58,909 nucleotides of DNA, taken from positions 1 through 58,909 of the forward strand of contig CALXBS010000004.1 of the NCBI GenBank assembly GCA_944386605.1, in the 5' to 3' direction. A program made the translations under genes and the position numbers. Shown here piece after piece: positions 32,222 through 53,034 of the stretch. A model generated the notes under the pieces. The model ran no database searches and was not told where the DNA came from. It saw only the letters and a list, made by a program, of their open reading frames with translations. Numbering within the stretch: the first letter of the stretch is position 1; every line of letters starts with the position of its first letter. This DNA is from an uncultured Clostridia bacterium (GTDB lineage Bacteria > Bacillota > Clostridia > TANB77 > CAG-465).

Positions 32222-33109
32222 TCATTTTAAAATTTCTTTTAGACCTTCTTCCATATTAATTTTGGTAGGAATAATATATTTTGCATGAACTTTATGAGAT
32301 ATGAGATTTGTGATTACTTTTAACGCCCTTATCCCATCAAACCATAGTGGATTATCACTTCTTTTCCTTATTTCATCTAAAGAAGTAATAAAAGCATTTT
32401 GGTCATAGACATCACTCATTTTTCTTGTTAACATATATTTTTGATTTTCTTTTTCATATAATGTATTTTTCTCTAAGGAATACTTTGCATGATGATACCA
32501 ATATAAATGATCTGTCCCTGCTAGAATTAAGACATCCGCTTTTTCTTCTATATTCCCTACTAATTTTTCAACTGCTTGATAGACTTCCTCAAAAGTACAA
32601 GTAGGAAAATCCTCTATTAGATCACTAAACTGACTATTAATGTCAACCACACCAAAAGAATAATATTTAGTTTTAAGAACTTTTCCCTGCTTTACAAAAA
32701 GTAACTCAATAGAACCTCCTCCAGTAATTAATATGCAAAGATTTCCATTATAAGGATGATTACTGTAACAACCTAAAGCAGTATATTTTGCTTCCATTTC
32801 CTGTGATACCACTTCTATTTGCAAATGAAATCTTTGATATAACTTTTGATTGATCGTTTTTAACTCCTCTTCTGTCATATCTCTAAAAATACTACATCCA
32901 TATACATGTACGTTTTTCGTATATTGTAAAGCATGATCAATCACCTTGTATAACTGTTCCAAGTCCGTTTGTCTTATCTTTCCTTCTTTTTTATAATTTT
33001 TCTTAAATTCTATTGTTACACTATTTTCATGAATTAGTTTCTCTCCTTCATAAACATGTGTTTTCGTATTTATACTACCAATTTCTATAATTGCAATTCT
33101 TTTCTCCAT
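32222..33109 (-). CDS. Ppx/GppA-family phosphatase-like (ASKHA fold)
   Basis: Motifs IAIIEIGSINTK, VVSQEMEAKYTALG and ILITGGGSIELLF match the Ppx/GppA N-terminal phosphate-binding blocks. Confidence 0.6.
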   Translation of the reverse strand: MEKRIAIIEIGSINTKTHVYEGEKLIHENSVTIEFKKNYKKEGKIRQTDLEQLYKVIDHALQYTKNVHVYGCSIFRDMTEEELKTINQKLYQRFHLQIEVVSQEMEAKYTALGCYSNHPYNGNLCILITGGGSIELLFVKQGKVLKTKYYSFGVVDINSQFSDLIEDFPTCTFEEVYQAVEKLVGNIEEKADVLILAGTDHLYWYHHAKYSLEKNTLYEKENQKYMLTRKMSDVYDQNAFITSLDEIRKRSDNPLWFDGIRALKVITNLISHKVHAKYIIPTKINMEEGLKEILK

Positions 33110-33241: not shown

Positions 33242-34354
33242 TTAAGATAAATCAATTATTTTTTCCCATTCTAAATCTTTTTTGCCAAAGTGTCCATAAT
33301 TGGTCGTTTTCGAATAAATAGGTCTTTTTAGCTTTAAATATGCAATCATTCCATTAGGAGTTAAATCAAATTTATTCTGAATGAGTGCTATCAGTTCTTG
33401 GTCGGTTTTATTTCCAGTCCCAAAAGTATTTACATAAATAGATAATGGTTCTTGAACACCGATTGCATAAGAAACTTGTATTTCACATTTGATAGCATAT
33501 CCATTTGCAACAATATTTTTTGCAATATGTCTTAACATATAGGCAGCTGATCGATCCACTTTGCTAGGATCTTTTCCAGAAAAAGCCCCACCTCCATGTT
33601 TGCTATATCCACCATATGTATCTACGATCAATTTTCTTCCTGTTAATCCAGTATCTCCTAATGGTCCCCCTATTACAAATCTTCCAGTTGGATTAATATA
33701 TATTTTGGTATTAAAATCAATCATCTTTTGATCCACAGTAGTATCAATTACTTTTTCTTGAATATCTTTTCGAATTTGCTCTAGTGAAATATTTTCTAAA
33801 TGTTGTGCTGAAATTACAATTGCTTCTATTCTTTTCGGATGATCTTGCTCATATTCTACTGTTACTTGTGTTTTTCCATCTGGTCTTAAATATGGAATCT
33901 GTTTATTTTTTCTAACTTCTGTAAGTTTTTGCGCCAACTGATGAGCAACAGAAAGTGCATAAGGCATATACTCTGGAGTCTCTTTGCATGCATATCCAAA
34001 GATAATTCCTTGATCTCCTGCTCCTCCATGATCTACTCCTAATGCAATATCTAAACTTTGTTTTGCAATATCTATGTTGATTTTACAAGTTCGATAATCC
34101 ATATCTAATTTTTCATCATCAAATCCAATCTCTTTTATTTTTTCTCTTACAAGTTGTTCAATAGAAAAATTTGCTTGACTTGTAATTTGCCCTGCAATGG
34201 TAATTGTATTTTTATGAGCAAGCGTTTCAACTGCTACTCTTGCATTTTCGTCTTGTTTTAAACATTCATCTAAAATCATGTCAGAAATGGTATCACATAA
34301 CTTATCTGGGTGCCCTTCTGTTACACTTTCTGACGTAAAATAATATTTTCTCAT
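33242..34354 (-). CDS. metK: S-adenosylmethionine synthetase
   Basis: Motifs TSESVTEGHPDKLCD, GAGDQGIIFGYA and GGGAFSGKDPSKVDRSAAY. Confidence 0.95.
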   Translation of the reverse strand: MRKYYFTSESVTEGHPDKLCDTISDMILDECLKQDENARVAVETLAHKNTITIAGQITSQANFSIEQLVREKIKEIGFDDEKLDMDYRTCKINIDIAKQSLDIALGVDHGGAGDQGIIFGYACKETPEYMPYALSVAHQLAQKLTEVRKNKQIPYLRPDGKTQVTVEYEQDHPKRIEAIVISAQHLENISLEQIRKDIQEKVIDTTVDQKMIDFNTKIYINPTGRFVIGGPLGDTGLTGRKLIVDTYGGYSKHGGGAFSGKDPSKVDRSAAYMLRHIAKNIVANGYAIKCEIQVSYAIGVQEPLSIYVNTFGTGNKTDQELIALIQNKFDLTPNGMIAYLKLKRPIYSKTTNYGHFGKKDLEWEKIIDLS

Positions 34355-35656: not shown

Positions 35657-35770
35657 ATGAAAACCTCCTATTAAATTATTATAGAATATATGAAAACATG
35701 CAAGTTTATTATAACATAGTTTACTTAAAATTACAATAAAAATTTTATCTTCCCCTATTTTCTACCTAAG

Positions 35771-35811
35771 AAAAAAATACAGATGAGCAATGTAAAATCT
35801 CATCTGTATTT
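35771..35811 (-). terminator. strong rho-independent terminator closing the radical-SAM/JAMM operon
   Basis: 13-bp perfect stem AAATACAGATGAG-N11-CTCATCTGTATTT followed by U7 on the minus strand. It starts 5 nt after the stop codon. Confidence 0.85.
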
Positions 35812-35815
35812 GTGG

Positions 35816-37429
35816 TTATTTAGATAACAAAACTAATTTTGCTTGTGCACAATCTTCCCCTGAAAAGCATACGATTTTTTCCTTCTGCGGATTAAGAATA
35901 ACGGACAAAAAATCTCCATATTGTTGTGTAAAATCTTGGTGATTTTTCGTATCATGAATGCTAAACCGAAACTCTGTCTCTCCTGGGTGACTATGGGCAA
36001 ATCCTAAAAACTTCACCTCTCCCAATGAGTCTTGATAAACAGTGTCTGATTTGGATAAATTTTCATTAATGATTGCTACTTCATCCATTACCTGACTTAC
36101 GCAAAAATCATCCATCGTAGCCATATTATGTGCTCGATTGTATAGAATACTTGGTACAGCATATTTTACCAAAGATACCGTATCAAAACTATGCCCTATT
36201 AAAGCCATTTGTTGTTCATATAGATTGCTTGGATGTCGCTCTCCATAATGAAAGAAACTGTATAAATCTTTCGTTGCTTGTGGCGTAAAGATGACCGTTT
36301 TGCTAGCTTCAAACTTAGCAGGGCTAATCGTATGATGTTGCAATGTTCCATTCTTTTGAATTAACAAAGAAAGAAGCTTTTTAGCAGATACTTCCTGTTC
36401 ATCTTCATGAAGTTTCTTTGTAAAAAAATCCCTGTAACAAAATAATGGGGTATTTGTTTCAAAATCAAATGTATGGAAACTATCTCCCTTACAATTCTCC
36501 CAATAGTTACAATTTTCACATTGCTTAGCTTTCGTTCTATCAGGATCTCTGTAAAATTCAAAACGATTTTTCCAAACTTCACAGAAAGGATCCTTTAAAA
36601 CGTTTCCTTGTATCAATTCTTTTCTTCTTGGAATATTAGGACATCCAAAAATATCCCCATTTGAAAGAATTGAAGCAACACAAATTCCAGTATGACAAGC
36701 AAACTTTTTACCTGTTGGATCTAGCGTATCTTGAGTATTTCCAAAATAATGTGTACAACTCCATACAACAGGAAGCGAGGAAAAGGCATGTTTCTTCATA
36801 AAGTCAAAGAGAAAATAATAATCCTCTTCACTTAACATTAAGGGCTCATTGTCTTTTGCTCTACCAATAGGATCAATTCCACTAATTCTAAATGAATCAA
36901 TTTGCAAAGAACTTAATAGCTGATAAACTTTTTCTAACTCATGAATATTCTTTTTGGTGGCGATAAAAGTAACCTGAATATGTTCAATAAAATTACTTTC
37001 TTTTAACCTTTTAATAGCAGAAATAATTCTATCAAACGAACCAGGAACATGTCTAAATGCTTCATGCGTCTCTTTCATTCCATCAAGGCTAATTGTTATT
37101 GTAGACATGTGTGTTTCTTTCATCTTCCTAATAACATCTTCTGTAATTAACATTCCATTTGTTACCAGTCCCCACTTAAATCCAAGTCTATCTGCATGTC
37201 CTGTAATTTCAAATAGATCCTTTCGTATAAGTGGTTCTCCACCTGTTATATTAAGCATAATCGTTTGGGTTCCAAAATTTTCAGCTACCTCATCCAGTAC
37301 TCTTTTAAAAGTATCTGCAGATAATTCATCCCTTTTATCCGCAGTACATCTGCTACCACAATGATCGCAAAGAGCATTACAGCGACTAGTAACCTCCAAA
37401 AAGAGTGTGTTTAATGGATAATTCCTCAT
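35816..37429 (-). CDS. radical SAM / SPASM-like maturase fused to a C-terminal JAMM (MPN+) metalloprotease domain
   Basis: CX3CX2C motif (CNALCDHC, 37358-37381), GGEPL, and a Cys-rich extension (CX7GX4C, CENCNYWENC). The C-terminus has YEQQMALIGH and HSHPGETEFRFSIHD (35951-35995), a JAMM-type H-x-H...S-x-x-D motif. Start set to ATG 37429, behind an AAGGAGGG RBS. Confidence 0.8.
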   Translation of the reverse strand: MRNYPLNTLFLEVTSRCNALCDHCGSRCTADKRDELSADTFKRVLDEVAENFGTQTIMLNITGGEPLIRKDLFEITGHADRLGFKWGLVTNGMLITEDVIRKMKETHMSTITISLDGMKETHEAFRHVPGSFDRIISAIKRLKESNFIEHIQVTFIATKKNIHELEKVYQLLSSLQIDSFRISGIDPIGRAKDNEPLMLSEEDYYFLFDFMKKHAFSSLPVVWSCTHYFGNTQDTLDPTGKKFACHTGICVASILSNGDIFGCPNIPRRKELIQGNVLKDPFCEVWKNRFEFYRDPDRTKAKQCENCNYWENCKGDSFHTFDFETNTPLFCYRDFFTKKLHEDEQEVSAKKLLSLLIQKNGTLQHHTISPAKFEASKTVIFTPQATKDLYSFFHYGERHPSNLYEQQMALIGHSFDTVSLVKYAVPSILYNRAHNMATMDDFCVSQVMDEVAIINENLSKSDTVYQDSLGEVKFLGFAHSHPGETEFRFSIHDTKNHQDFTQQYGDFLSVILNPQKEKIVCFSGEDCAQAKLVLLSK

Positions 37430-37444
37430 ATACCCTCCTTTCAA

Positions 37445-37885
37445 TTACTTAGATTCTTCTACCGTCCCTGTTGCCACTATGCTATCTTTTTCAGAATACC
37501 GTTCCGCTTCATTGATTGCCTCTTCAACACTACGAGCCATTGGACACCCATAAAGACATCTTCCTCCACCTAAAGAAGATCTATTACGTACCACAGGTCT
37601 AGGTTCTGGCTTTCCATCTTGAATCACGATACGACTTTTTTCTTGAATACCTAATTCTTTTAAAGATCGACATTTATCTGTACAAATCTCTGTAAGATTT
37701 GTTTTTGTATCATCTTCTAAGAATACCTTGGTTGTAGAGTATGACTCCCGATAAGAAGAGATATAACCTAAATCTCTCAAATAGGCTTTTAACACCACCT
37801 CATTCATATCTGCAGGAATTGTTACCTGACTATATTCCTTCCGATTACGTGTTACATACAAATGCATAAGTTCTCTTGCTGACAT
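37445..37885 (-). CDS. putative substrate/precursor: ubiquitin-like N-terminal domain, SLGGG motif, di-Cys segment and acidic tail
   Basis: 146 aa with a GGAGA RBS. Contains ...RSLKELGIQEKSRIVIQ, then DGKPEPRPVVRNRSSLGGG, then RCLYGCPMARSVEEAINEAERYSEKDSIVATGTVEESK. The stop lies 15 nt before the maturase ATG. Confidence 0.7.
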   Translation of the reverse strand: MSARELMHLYVTRNRKEYSQVTIPADMNEVVLKAYLRDLGYISSYRESYSTTKVFLEDDTKTNLTEICTDKCRSLKELGIQEKSRIVIQDGKPEPRPVVRNRSSLGGGRCLYGCPMARSVEEAINEAERYSEKDSIVATGTVEESK

Positions 37886-38014
37886 TTTCCTAAATCTCCT
37901 TTCATGGTATATTCATCTGTTTGTTACTAAAAACCCCCTCCTTTTCATAAACTTTTACCAAATGAAGTATTAACTTACATTAAAAATTTTGCTATAAGCA
38001 AATTTTATGCAAAC

Positions 38015-38043
38015 ATTCTATCATCTTTTTTACATAAAGTCAA
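38015..38043 (-). promoter_or_regulatory. putative sigma-A promoter of the precursor/maturase operon
   Basis: Minus strand reads TTGACT-17 nt-TAGAAT with a TG extended -10 (aTGaTAGAAT), about 120 nt upstream of ATG 37885. Confidence 0.45.
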
Positions 38044-38193: not shown

Positions 38194-38898
38194 ATGATTA
38201 TTATTAACAATGGACCAGTTTCAAGAAGAAATATAATAAGTATCTCACATGGTACAAACGTCGAAGAAACTGGTAAATTTGAAGAATTTAACCAAAAGAA
38301 AGTAAAAGATTCTAGCGATATTGATAAGATAACAATCGATTCAAAATTTGTCGATGTTCATGTTTTAGCTTCCAATTCATCCAAGATCCAAGCACACTTC
38401 TATGGTGAGGCAAATATTGATGGAGATGTCATCTTTGATGTTCAAGTGGTAAATCGTGAACTTAGAATTACGTTAAAGTTTACTGGCATCTGTGTTAGTG
38501 GAAATTTAAACCTCGATGTTACTGTACCCCACAAGATGTTTGAAATGATTTCTTTGAAGAGTTCATCAGCAGACTTCACCTTAAATGAGGGGGTTCAAAC
38601 TGACTATCTTAAAATAGAAACAAAGTCTGGTGATTTGGAAACTCATGCAACCGTAAACAATGTTTCCATTTCCACAATGAGCGGAGATATCGATCTTTAC
38701 ATCAATGCAGAACAAAATGTTAGCGTTGAAGTTTCTACAATGAGCGGTGACGTATCAGTAGAATTTAGCAATATTAGACATGTCAACCTTTCTGCAAGTT
38801 CTATGAGTGGTAAAGTTAAGAATCGTCACAACGGTAACAGAGGTTTTACCGCTAACGTAAATATTTCTACAATGGGTGGAGATATAAAAATTAGATAA
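38194..38898 (+). CDS. DUF4097-type beta-strand repeat protein (LiaG-like putative adhesin fold)
   Basis: Repeated (I/V)STMSGD(I/V) strands at the C-terminus, and an AAGGAGG RBS. Divergent from the radical-SAM operon. Confidence 0.7.
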   Translation: MIIINNGPVSRRNIISISHGTNVEETGKFEEFNQKKVKDSSDIDKITIDSKFVDVHVLASNSSKIQAHFYGEANIDGDVIFDVQVVNRELRITLKFTGICVSGNLNLDVTVPHKMFEMISLKSSSADFTLNEGVQTDYLKIETKSGDLETHATVNNVSISTMSGDIDLYINAEQNVSVEVSTMSGDVSVEFSNIRHVNLSASSMSGKVKNRHNGNRGFTANVNISTMGGDIKIR

Positions 38899-39947: not shown

Positions 39948-40297
39948 TGGTGGAGATGGTGGGAGTTGAACCCACGTCCATAAATTCTATTCTATCAACT
40001 TCTCCGAGTGCAGTAAATTTTATTTTACAAATTGTTAGCTTAAAAATTTACAAAAATACTATCAACCGAATGGAAAAATCCCCATTAACTTTACCATTAT
40101 CGTTAATTTTGTTGCTAGATCATTCGAAGCCCTTTATTACCCTCTAGCAAAATAATAAAAGACTCGCTACCTTAGGCAGCTAATGCAAATTTATTATTAT
40201 CTGCGTTTAATTTTATTTCTCGTTTTTATAGTGGCCAACGAGAATCCACTACTCGCTATCAATAGAATCAAAATAGATGTCGAAACCTTACATCCCC
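39948..40297 (-). ncRNA. ssrA: transfer-messenger RNA
   Basis: The 5' end is GGGGAUGUAAGGUUUCGAC. The 3' end is GUGGGUUCAACUCCCACCAUCUCCACCA, with a G3-U70 pair in the acceptor stem. The tag ORF GCAGAUAAUAAUAAAUUUGCAUUAGCUGCCUAA (40172-40204) encodes ADNNKFALAA*. Confidence 0.93.
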
Positions 40298-52960: not shown

Positions 52961-53034
52961 GCGGGTGTAGTTCAATGGTAGAATGTCAGCCTTCCAAGCT
53001 GAACACGTGGGTCCGATTCCCATCACCCGCTCCA
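52961..53034 (+). tRNA. tRNA-Gly (anticodon UCC) with a non-canonical T-loop
   Basis: The cloverleaf folds by hand. Acceptor stem is GCGGGTG/CACCCGC, anticodon arm is TCAGC-CTTCCAA-GCTGA, and the encoded CCA is present. The T-arm is GTGGG-TCCGATT-CCCAT, so position 55 is C rather than the universal U. Confidence 0.85.

Follow-up and report, generated by a model that had tools for sequence, protein, structure and literature searches.

A two-gene unit, consisting of a gene for a small ubiquitin-like protein (A) and a gene for a fusion of a radical S-adenosylmethionine (rSAM)/SPASM enzyme with a JAMM domain (B), was analysed in the DNA of an uncultured Clostridia bacterium (contig CALXBS010000004.1). 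The whole stretch of 58,909 nt is referred to as the window; the module spans positions 35771-38043, and all of its features lie on the minus strand. Gene A (37445..37885) encodes a protein of 146 residues, read below as the probable precursor or substrate and composed of a ubiquitin-like (Ubl) carrier, a linker, the motif LYGCP and a follower tail. Gene B (35816..37429) encodes the fusion enzyme of 537 residues, counted from its ATG; the mechanically called open reading frame (ORF) begins at a TTG 15 nt before this codon. By reading of the sequence, a ribosome-binding site (RBS), AAAGGAG (37896..37902), was located 10 nt 5' of the ATG of gene A, and the RBS of gene B, AAGGAGGG (37433..37440), lies inside the 15-nt gap between the genes. 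A promoter-like site, TTGACT-17 nt-TAGAAT with a TG-extended -10 element (38015..38043, 10 of 12 matches), is present upstream of A. Such hexamers are not enriched in the surrounding AT-rich stretch (11 seen, 12.1 expected from shuffles), so the site is plausible, not statistically distinctive. B is followed by an intrinsic terminator with a 13-bp stem, an 11-nt loop and U7 (35768..35811; dG -15.5 kcal/mol, z = -5.8), which none of 200 shuffles matched in folding; it was overlooked by the pattern scanner because its loop exceeds 8 nt. Both genes, the gap with its RBS, the promoter and the terminator had been placed at these positions by an initial annotation made from the sequence alone, and all were recovered there. 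A and B form a compact two-gene unit with a promoter-like site, RBSs and a strong terminator.

The loci scanned (80 from GTDB genomes, two metagenome-derived loci and the window) comprise 41 with a JAMM-fused enzyme and 42 with an rSAM-only relative. All genes within 6 kb of the enzyme were clustered in the 41 fused loci: besides the precursors, no gene family recurred in more than five of them, in keeping with the closed, autonomous unit proposed earlier. Nor did any transporter, ubiquitin-activating (E1) or ubiquitin-conjugating (E2) enzyme, recognition-element (RRE) protein of peptides that are made ribosomally and modified post-translationally (RiPPs) or second protease recur there, which extends to the fused loci the annotation's remark that no E1/E2, exporter or RRE lies nearby. 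The homologue search returned 105 clusters for A and 1222 for B (most of the best 120 of these 1222 are full-length), and A and B are adjacent in 11 of 11 loci of the window's clade; with two large homologue families and this constant adjacency, the pairing is not a chance one.

Domains of the fusion enzyme

The rSAM core of B (residues ~8-215, 36785..37408; C17-x3-C21-x2-C24, GGEPL) was recognised by Pfam PF04055 (E 4e-23, 82.8 bits, cut-off 29.5) and the SPASM auxiliary-cluster domain (residues ~223-335, 36425..36763) by PF13186 (23.9 bits, cut-off 21.5). Conservation was counted over 31 homologues of B down to 43% identity: C17, C21 and C24 are invariant, as are the seven SPASM Cys residues 225, 245, 263, 304, 307, 313 and 331. 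An AlphaFold2 (AF2) model built from these 31 homologues is confident, with a predicted local distance difference test (pLDDT) score of 88, and its whole-chain fold matches are SkfB, SuiB, CteB, PqqE, anSME, ChlB and EpeE. The whole-chain Foldseek search listed no MPN structures, because the rSAM/SPASM part dominates it. No RRE was recognised in B by Pfam or in the AF2 model, the rSAM core beginning at residue 8. The best curated family for residues 1-333 is TIGR04133 ("rSAM_w_lipo", 276.4 bits, cut-off 425), to whose annotated members B is ~33% identical; B scores below the cut-off and is thus a relative of this family, not a member. The annotation had matched the pair to no named family; this agrees with the TIGR04133 score and with the source names ("radical SAM protein", "hypothetical"), and no family in NCBIfam 20.0 or Pfam covers the fusion.

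The JAMM/MPN+ metallopeptidase domain occupies residues ~372-537 (35819..36316). Its catalytic set (E405, H479-S-H481, S490, D493) is invariant both in the 31 homologues and in a 20-sequence alignment of the domain. The signature HSHP..S-xx-D quoted by the annotation is present, with a spacer of seven residues and not eight; the other quoted motifs of B (CNALCDHC, GGEPL, CENCNYWENC, YEQQ) were found as given. A profile of the domain matched only JAMM/MPN+ isopeptidases in the PDB (AMSH-LP, Sst2, STAMBP, Rpn11-like, BRCC36; best E 1.2e-4, the alignment spanning the HxH..S..D core), in agreement with the MPN fold expected in B. Pfam Prok-JAB is matched individually, below threshold, by 16 of the 20 domain members and, above its cut-off of 25, by one clade member (P0253, 27.5 bits). 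From the invariant catalytic set and the PDB and Prok-JAB matches, the C-terminal ~165 residues are taken to be a JAMM/MPN+ peptidase, in all likelihood an active one. The Pfam matches, the invariant residues and the domain profile together uphold the rSAM-SPASM-JAMM composition of B. As judged from the conserved residues, this peptidase probably acts on the precursor. The domain could instead be a non-catalytic docking element that replaces the missing RRE and binds the Ubl or the tail, the product remaining full-length; B has no recognisable RRE, and MPN- pseudo-enzymes that merely bind Ubls are well known. Inactive MPN- domains, however, characteristically lose catalytic positions, whereas all five catalytic or zinc positions are kept here in 31 sequences down to 43% identity and in the divergent locus L035 described below, and a docking-only role is considered very unlikely.

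An exhaustive search of 1.84 billion representative proteins with a hidden Markov model (HMM) of the JAMM domain gave only 223 matches at E <= 1e-3, of which 48 reach E <= 1e-10. Beyond fused enzymes and their fragments, a second architecture was found, in which the JAMM lies at the N-terminus of proteins of ~376-462 residues with disordered tails. Two of these free-standing JAMM proteins, P0255 and P0248, are encoded in operons together with single or tandem beta-grasp proteins and with ThiF/E1-like and E2-like genes (the E2-like UQ_con match is weak and confined to locus L084). Over 155 residues, the JAMM of B and P0255 share 31% identity (E 6e-23), and the Ubl of A aligns with the tandem Ubl of one E1/E2/JAMM operon with an hhalign probability of 72% (E 3.5e-5), a moderate likeness. 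By this homology, the peptidase of B comes from a lineage that services bacterial ubiquitin-like conjugation. Among the 42 rSAM-only loci, the domain HMM detected no free-standing JAMM beside the enzyme.

These two likenesses would also suit a module for Ubl conjugation or defence, in which the JAMM exposes the C-terminal Gly of the Ubl, E1/E2 enzymes encoded elsewhere conjugate it, and the rSAM part is accessory or regulatory. We consider such a role highly improbable. No E1 or E2 recurs beside the 41 fused loci, most of the precursors described below (lipoprotein or transmembrane, amphipathic) have no Ubl, and the Cys residues of the rSAM/SPASM part are fully conserved, which argues for a central catalytic role. 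Searches of phage and plasmid records with tblastn did not recover the module either and gave only rSAM-only matches (<=68% of B, none reaching the JAMM part). PADLOC gave B generic viperin-like rSAM matches and a weak JAB match and gave A nothing, and assignment to a known defence system was rejected. With regard to Bil/Bub membership, a JAB homologue and a Ubl are present, but no E1/E2 recurs in the 41 loci and PADLOC returned no system-level match. A itself, considered as a conjugatable Ubl, has no conserved GGG; its conserved Gly residues are G91 and G113.

The two operons with E1(ThiF), E2-like, Ubl and JAMM genes (L084 1643-9488, L085 3733-7212) encode the nearest free-standing relatives of the JAMM of B. 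Other products encoded in L084 are a protein kinase, a protein with a transglutaminase core, a small rSAM protein resembling NrdG, an AAA+ protein resembling ClpB and an FHA/zinc-ribbon protein. PADLOC recognised only the E1 of these operons, weakly, and no known defence system; they may represent an undescribed Bil/Bub-like system.

Protein A and the x-Tyr-Gly-Cys-Pro tag

Residues 1-91 of A (37613..37885) form a Ubl beta-grasp domain with the order b-b-a-b-b-(a)-b in the AF2 model (pLDDT 73), in which the linker is disordered and residues 118-128 form a helix. The top 47 Foldseek matches of A in the PDB are all Ubl, ubiquitin or UBX structures (best E 2e-5), with target template-modelling scores of ~0.7-0.8 against single-domain Ubl chains. 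The beta-grasp fold that the annotation had proposed for A was thereby found, and the strand order and the structural matches show its fold assignments to be right. The domain is followed by a Pro-rich, variable and disordered linker (residues 92-110, 37556..37612; pLDDT <50 at 99-106, columns unconserved), which includes SLGGG and Cys110, by the core motif LYGCP (residues 111-115, 37541..37555), which is invariant in the alignment of 26 homologues of A, and by an acidic follower tail (residues 116-146, 37448..37540) with the predicted helix 118-128 (MARSVEEAINEAERYS..DS), which is kept within the class. In the alignment the invariant L-Y-G-C-P is followed by (M/I)(A/S)xSV and the acidic helical tail.

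All motifs quoted for A (SLKELGIQEKSRIVIQ, SLGGG, RCLYGCPMAR) are present in the window. In the scheme built on them, the rSAM/SPASM part crosslinks or oxidises Cys110 and Cys114 and the JAMM cuts past GGG 107-109, so that a Gly-ended Ubl or a Cys-modified peptide is released. SLGGG-RCLYGCP does hold a Gly run and two Cys residues, JAMM enzymes often cut past Gly-Gly, and Cys is a frequent target of SPASM enzymes. The alignment of A is at odds with this: most homologues have no GGG and carry GSM, FSR, GFG, DPY or other residues at the supposed cleavage site, and the first Cys of the "di-Cys" segment, Cys110, varies among C, Y, A, V and F. Neither GGG nor the Cys pair occurs in the lipoprotein/transmembrane or amphipathic precursors, and one fused-enzyme locus (L035) has LYGAP with no Cys at all, so that even the motif Cys is not required. 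The GGG/di-Cys scheme was rejected on these grounds and is scarcely credible.

Comparison across the fused loci points to a different determinant. Upstream of distant homologues of B lie genes unlike A whose products nevertheless share its motif; among them are membrane-anchored peptides of 54-76 residues ('...ICLYGCPSVKRK...', '...FLYGCPNSKKVKRP...') and zinc-ribbon proteins of 154-169 residues ('...VCLYGCPSSEKIE...'). ORFs with x-YGCP adjoin the fused enzyme in 40 of 41 loci, with one to six per locus and 65 distinct precursors. The 41st locus, L035, has an intact fused enzyme with all five JAMM positions kept and a zinc-ribbon precursor with LYGAP ('...AVLYGAPAARGM...'), from which it follows that the Cys is strongly preferred but dispensable. 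A tagged precursor thus adjoins the fused enzyme throughout (41/41); the GG(G)-Cys protein that had been expected as the constant neighbour is kept in its tag and not in its GG(G). No neighbour of the rSAM-only relatives carries YGCP (0/42), the sole occurrence elsewhere lying inside an enzyme. YGCP is preceded by Y in 32 precursors, by L in 27, by H in 5 and by F in 1, the Tyr and Gly are invariant in all 66 precursors (65 with x-YGCP and the one with LYGAP), position +4 is mostly N or M, and position +5 is S or A. The tail past the Pro measures 12-34 residues (median 16) and the N-terminal part 30-180 residues.

Three classes of precursor were distinguished. The first, that of the window's clade, combines the Ubl with an acidic tail. 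The second consists of short peptides with a lipoprotein signal, a transmembrane helix or an amphipathic N-terminus and a basic tail, NSKKAxKLQLxKKLYR, in up to six tandem copies. The third joins a zinc ribbon to a domain homologous to the Ubl of A (hhalign probability 96%, E 5.6e-9) and a tail. The Ubl fold of A is therefore real, as had been stated, but x-Y-G-C-P plus tail occurs on at least three types of carrier, of which the Ubl is just one, and the Ubl is not the part that defines the substrate. In the tandem arrays (L002, L020, L021, L026, L081) the tails are near-identical and the N-terminal parts vary in length and sequence, the pattern that marks a recognition (follower) sequence at the C-terminus of variable cargo. 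The sole Gly invariant across all precursor classes is G113. As far as the alignments show, the substrate is defined by the C-terminal x-Tyr-Gly-Cys-Pro and tail, not by the Ubl fold, the GGG or the Cys pair.

The opposite polarity was also weighed, in which the carrier is the leader of a RiPP, the JAMM cuts upstream of the motif (e.g., past G91) and the released peptide with the modified YGCP is bioactive. All 26 homologues of the Ubl class keep G91 (37613-37615), which lies two residues past the final beta-grasp strand (IQDG|KPEP), at the place of the C-terminal Gly of a Ubl; JAMM enzymes recognise Ubl folds (PMC11601596), and the fusion of a leader peptidase to a maturase would be economical. 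The conserved tails and variable N-terminal parts of the tandem arrays are, however, the reverse of leader/core logic, and no conserved Gly or other common site lies upstream of the motif across the classes. Many N-terminal parts are Sec or lipoprotein signal peptides, whose use as leaders in the cytoplasm would be a waste, and no exporter is encoded. A leader role of the carrier is accordingly rated as unlikely.

Two side observations concern individual precursors. With its two motifs in a row, a looser and a strict one (..QVLYGPPPVVTHQILYGCPKSKK..), one membrane-anchored precursor (L002 4500-4721) may be a natural double substrate. In L001 (4106-5357), the genes immediately upstream of the YGCP precursors encode a Cys-rich protein of 175-180 residues and a PflA/NrdG-like small radical SAM activase of 241 residues.

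The rSAM-only relatives are spread over Bacilli, Clostridia, Patescibacteria, Methanocella, Deltaproteobacteria and Bacteroidales. Their neighbours carry a looser consensus, Q-x-[VL]-Y-G-[VIPT]-P, often in two to four repeats. Y-G-x-P lies beside the enzyme in 26 of 42 loci; adjoining ORFs on the same strand contain it at 1.43 per 1000 aa, 13-fold the density of 0.11 in ORFs lying farther off in the same loci. In annotated "radical SAM-associated putative lipoprotein" partners of TIGR04133 enzymes, Y-G-x-P stands directly past the lipobox Cys; examples are ..PCEYGSPH.. in Parabacteroides distasonis (L086 1575-2417) and ..LTSCYGMPE.. in Treponema saccharophilum (L087 2062-2451). TIGR04133 is labelled "hypothetical equivalog" in NCBIfam, with no function named, and the partner sequences suggest Y-G-x-P as the target site of this curated family. 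From the motif's presence beside both rSAM-only and TIGR04133 enzymes we infer that the whole enzyme clade tracks Tyr-Gly-x-Pro and that the JAMM-fused branch has fixed x = Cys. In a neighbour-joining tree this branch is monophyletic (41 tips, no unfused member inside), as would be expected if the rSAM-JAMM fusion arose in one event.

These comparisons also bear on a chemistry centred on Cys114, in which the rSAM part would form a sactipeptide- or ranthipeptide-type thioether, an anSME-like formylglycine or something similar before the JAMM trims. Cys is found in 65 of the 66 fused-clade precursors, the fold neighbours of B include the thioether synthases SkfB and CteB as well as anSME, and C-P-x-[SA]-[KR] loosely resembles the sulfatase motif C-x-P-x-R. 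Set against this are the LYGAP precursor beside the intact enzyme of L035 and the retention of Y-G-x-P in rSAM-only clades and TIGR04133 partners, where x is I, V, P, T, A, S or M, not Cys. The conserved Cys is a single one (Ala in L035) without a conserved acceptor residue, no RRE was detected, and the StsB and PapB models scored far below their cut-offs, contrary to what is expected of sactipeptides or ranthipeptides. For anSME, the register of the motif differs, no sulfatase domain is present and TIGR03942 gave 74 bits (cut-off 349). Modification of the Cys is rated as rather improbable, and the Tyr-Gly pair is probably the target of the rSAM enzyme, as its conservation in enzyme neighbourhoods suggests.

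Proposed maturation and known systems

The best explanation of the data as a whole is a two-component maturation module in which the follower docks, the rSAM part modifies Tyr-Gly and the JAMM removes the follower; its chances are put at about even. The follower tail would dock the tag on B, and its helix may act like the splicease-activating helix described below. The rSAM/SPASM domain would then act on Tyr112-Gly113, most likely by a splicease-type excision of tyramine that would convert Leu111-Tyr112 into an alpha-keto-beta-leucine ketoamide. The fused JAMM would hydrolyse the backbone right past Gly113 (LYG|CP) and discard the follower, and the retained carrier (Ubl, zinc-ribbon-Ubl, or lipid- or membrane-anchored peptide) would gain a modified C-terminus ending in Gly.

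Tyramine excision at X-Y-G by rSAM/SPASM spliceases (PMC11414181, PMC9811515) is the only experimentally defined rSAM/SPASM reaction with an X-Y-G target that was found in the literature searched. Native splice tags of PlpA are PIRPLYGLPI and AVAAMYGVVFP (PMC10533398, Table 1), LYG is spliced in RasA (PMC11626197), and binary splicease systems without an RRE depend on a substrate helix, which activates splicing (PMC11414181). The likeness of hydrophobic-Y-G-x-P to the PlpA tags, the LYG of RasA and the RRE-less binary systems make splicing the leading hypothesis, although by analogy its probability is put at slightly below even. The cut is placed at LYG|CP because the Gly of Y-G is the only one invariant across the classes and JAB peptidases cut past a conserved Gly. 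JAB peptidases of Ubl operons cleave pre-Ubls right past such a residue, and for BubCD the cut in BubAB directly past a conserved Gly was established by Edman sequencing (PMC11601596). On this analogy, cleavage exactly at G|C is given an even chance. The motif tracked by the rSAM clade and the lineage of the JAMM are two independent lines that converge on the same five residues.

Several points weigh against this scheme. Anatomy, conservation, co-localisation and homologies were seen directly, and docking, chemistry, cut site and step order, and with them every catalytic step, are inferred. B itself scores only 12.9-15.6 bits against Prok-JAB, below the cut-off of 25. G91, placed like the C-terminal Gly of a Ubl, could be a class-specific cut site of the JAMM. 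The Ubls of the two E1/E2/JAMM operons examined end in ..NVA and ..IVA, not in Gly, so the rule of cutting after Gly is borrowed from other JAB lineages. TIGR04103 (PlpX-type), which we take to correspond to the PlpX family IPR026482, gave B 103.9 bits (cut-off 725), below AhbD (163), NirJ2 (138) and MftC (132). Finally, the near-invariant Cys-Pro of the fused clade is unexplained if splicing needs X-Y-G alone. Its fixation may reflect a P1'/P2' preference of the JAMM: QbsD cuts GG|CF and Mec+ cuts GG|Cys, with Cys at P1' in both.

The module was compared with the spliceotides (PlpX/PcpX/RhaX/RasX). Common to both are an rSAM/SPASM enzyme beside precursors with a hydrophobic residue and an invariant Tyr-Gly (an X-Y-G core lies beside the enzyme here in all 66 precursors, while the PlpX-family score is the one given above), cores of the same shape (L-Y-G-L-P in PlpA, L-Y-G-C-P here), the existence of RRE-less binary systems with an activating substrate helix, and the use of both proteins and peptides as substrates. 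B has a JAMM, whereas none of the spliceases described in the literature searched is fused to a JAMM or any other protease; spliceotides have an N-terminal leader of the Nif11/NHLP type, whereas the module has a C-terminal follower and Ubl, zinc-ribbon or lipoprotein carriers. Scott et al. (2022) are reported to have mined YG enrichment beside rSAM-SPASM genes and to have predicted 939 systems (PMC10849128, PMC10533398); the present rSAM clade may overlap these predictions. The partners of TIGR04133 (Bacteroidales, Treponema) carry Y-G-x-P, and many fused-clade precursors are likewise lipoproteins; these enzymes have no JAMM, and in their partners x is S, M, A or P and the motif is N-terminal, whereas in the module x is Cys and the motif precedes the C-terminal tail.

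With the pre-Ubl peptidases of the JAB type (BilC, BubCD, Cap3, QbsD/QbsE, Mec+/CysO), B shares the JAMM fold and the catalytic set, and here too the substrate is often a beta-grasp protein with a C-terminal extension past a conserved Gly. The module differs in having no E1/E2, in the fusion of the JAMM to a radical SAM enzyme, in that most substrates of the clade are not Ubls, and in residues P3-P1, which are x-G-G in those systems and L/Y-Y-G here. In the bottromycin pathway (PMC10885120) the recognition sequence also lies C-terminal to the modified site and is then removed by a metallohydrolase, PurAH, as proposed here; that pathway uses a YcaO enzyme and an amidohydrolase in place of rSAM/SPASM and JAMM, and an entire folded protein can be retained in the present module. 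The terms JAMM, JAB and MPN do not occur in the RiPP-protease review PMC10885120, radical SAM is unmentioned in the Ubl/JAB comparative-genomics literature searched, and full-text searches for an rSAM-JAMM/JAB fusion or a YGCP tag returned nothing relevant. The components (rSAM/SPASM maturase, JAMM peptidase, beta-grasp protein) are of known kinds; the fusion, the YGCP-follower tag on heterogeneous carriers and the replacement of E1/E2 by a radical enzyme were not found in the curated families or the literature searched.

If the model holds, B would be the first radical SAM maturase found described as fused to a JAMM peptidase in that literature, and the module would be the first link of a Ubl-processing peptidase lineage to RiPP-type radical chemistry. 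The tag (x-YGCP plus tail) is short, portable and C-terminal and is carried in nature by folded proteins, lipoproteins and membrane peptides; it would be attractive for protein engineering, with one enzyme both modifying the C-terminus site-specifically and afterwards removing the tag. For the TIGR04133-like clade, action on Y-G-x-P is offered as a testable functional hypothesis. A further, quite speculative and doubtful idea is that the rSAM part makes an electrophilic alpha-ketoamide of Leu-Tyr, which upon trimming of the follower by the JAMM is left as a warhead at the new ...-Gly C-terminus, so that the carriers would covalently trap Ser/Cys proteases or become attached to other nucleophiles. 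Armed Ubls and lipid-anchored surface peptides would then be made without E1/E2, radical chemistry replacing the ATP-dependent activation of a Ubl. The products might be ketoamide protease inhibitors anchored at the surface and could play a part in the interactions of microbes with their hosts or with phages.

Distribution and chromosomal context

Most carriers of the module are uncultured Clostridia, Lachnospiraceae and Ruminococcaceae from gut and rumen. In a bin assigned to a methanogenic archaeon (L029, contig DALTWG010000001.1, metagenome-assembled genome of Methanocorpusculum sp.), a complete fused enzyme is accompanied by two CLYGCP precursors, which could reflect horizontal transfer from gut Clostridia or contamination during binning.

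In the window, the divergent neighbour of the module (38194-38898, plus strand) encodes a DUF4097 'toastrack' protein (E 3e-22) and is not kept beside the module in other loci. Upstream, at a distance of ~2 kb from the module, lies a transfer-messenger RNA (tmRNA) gene (39948-40297, minus strand; tag peptide ADNNKFALAA), and further on a tRNA-Gly(TCC) gene (52961-53034, plus strand). Downstream of the module, the gene at 33242-34354 presumably encodes MetK, judged by eye from its translation and not confirmed by search, and the gene at 32222-33109 belongs to the Ppx/GppA family. With the tmRNA, tRNA-Gly, MetK and Ppx/GppA genes, the surroundings look like ordinary chromosomal context.

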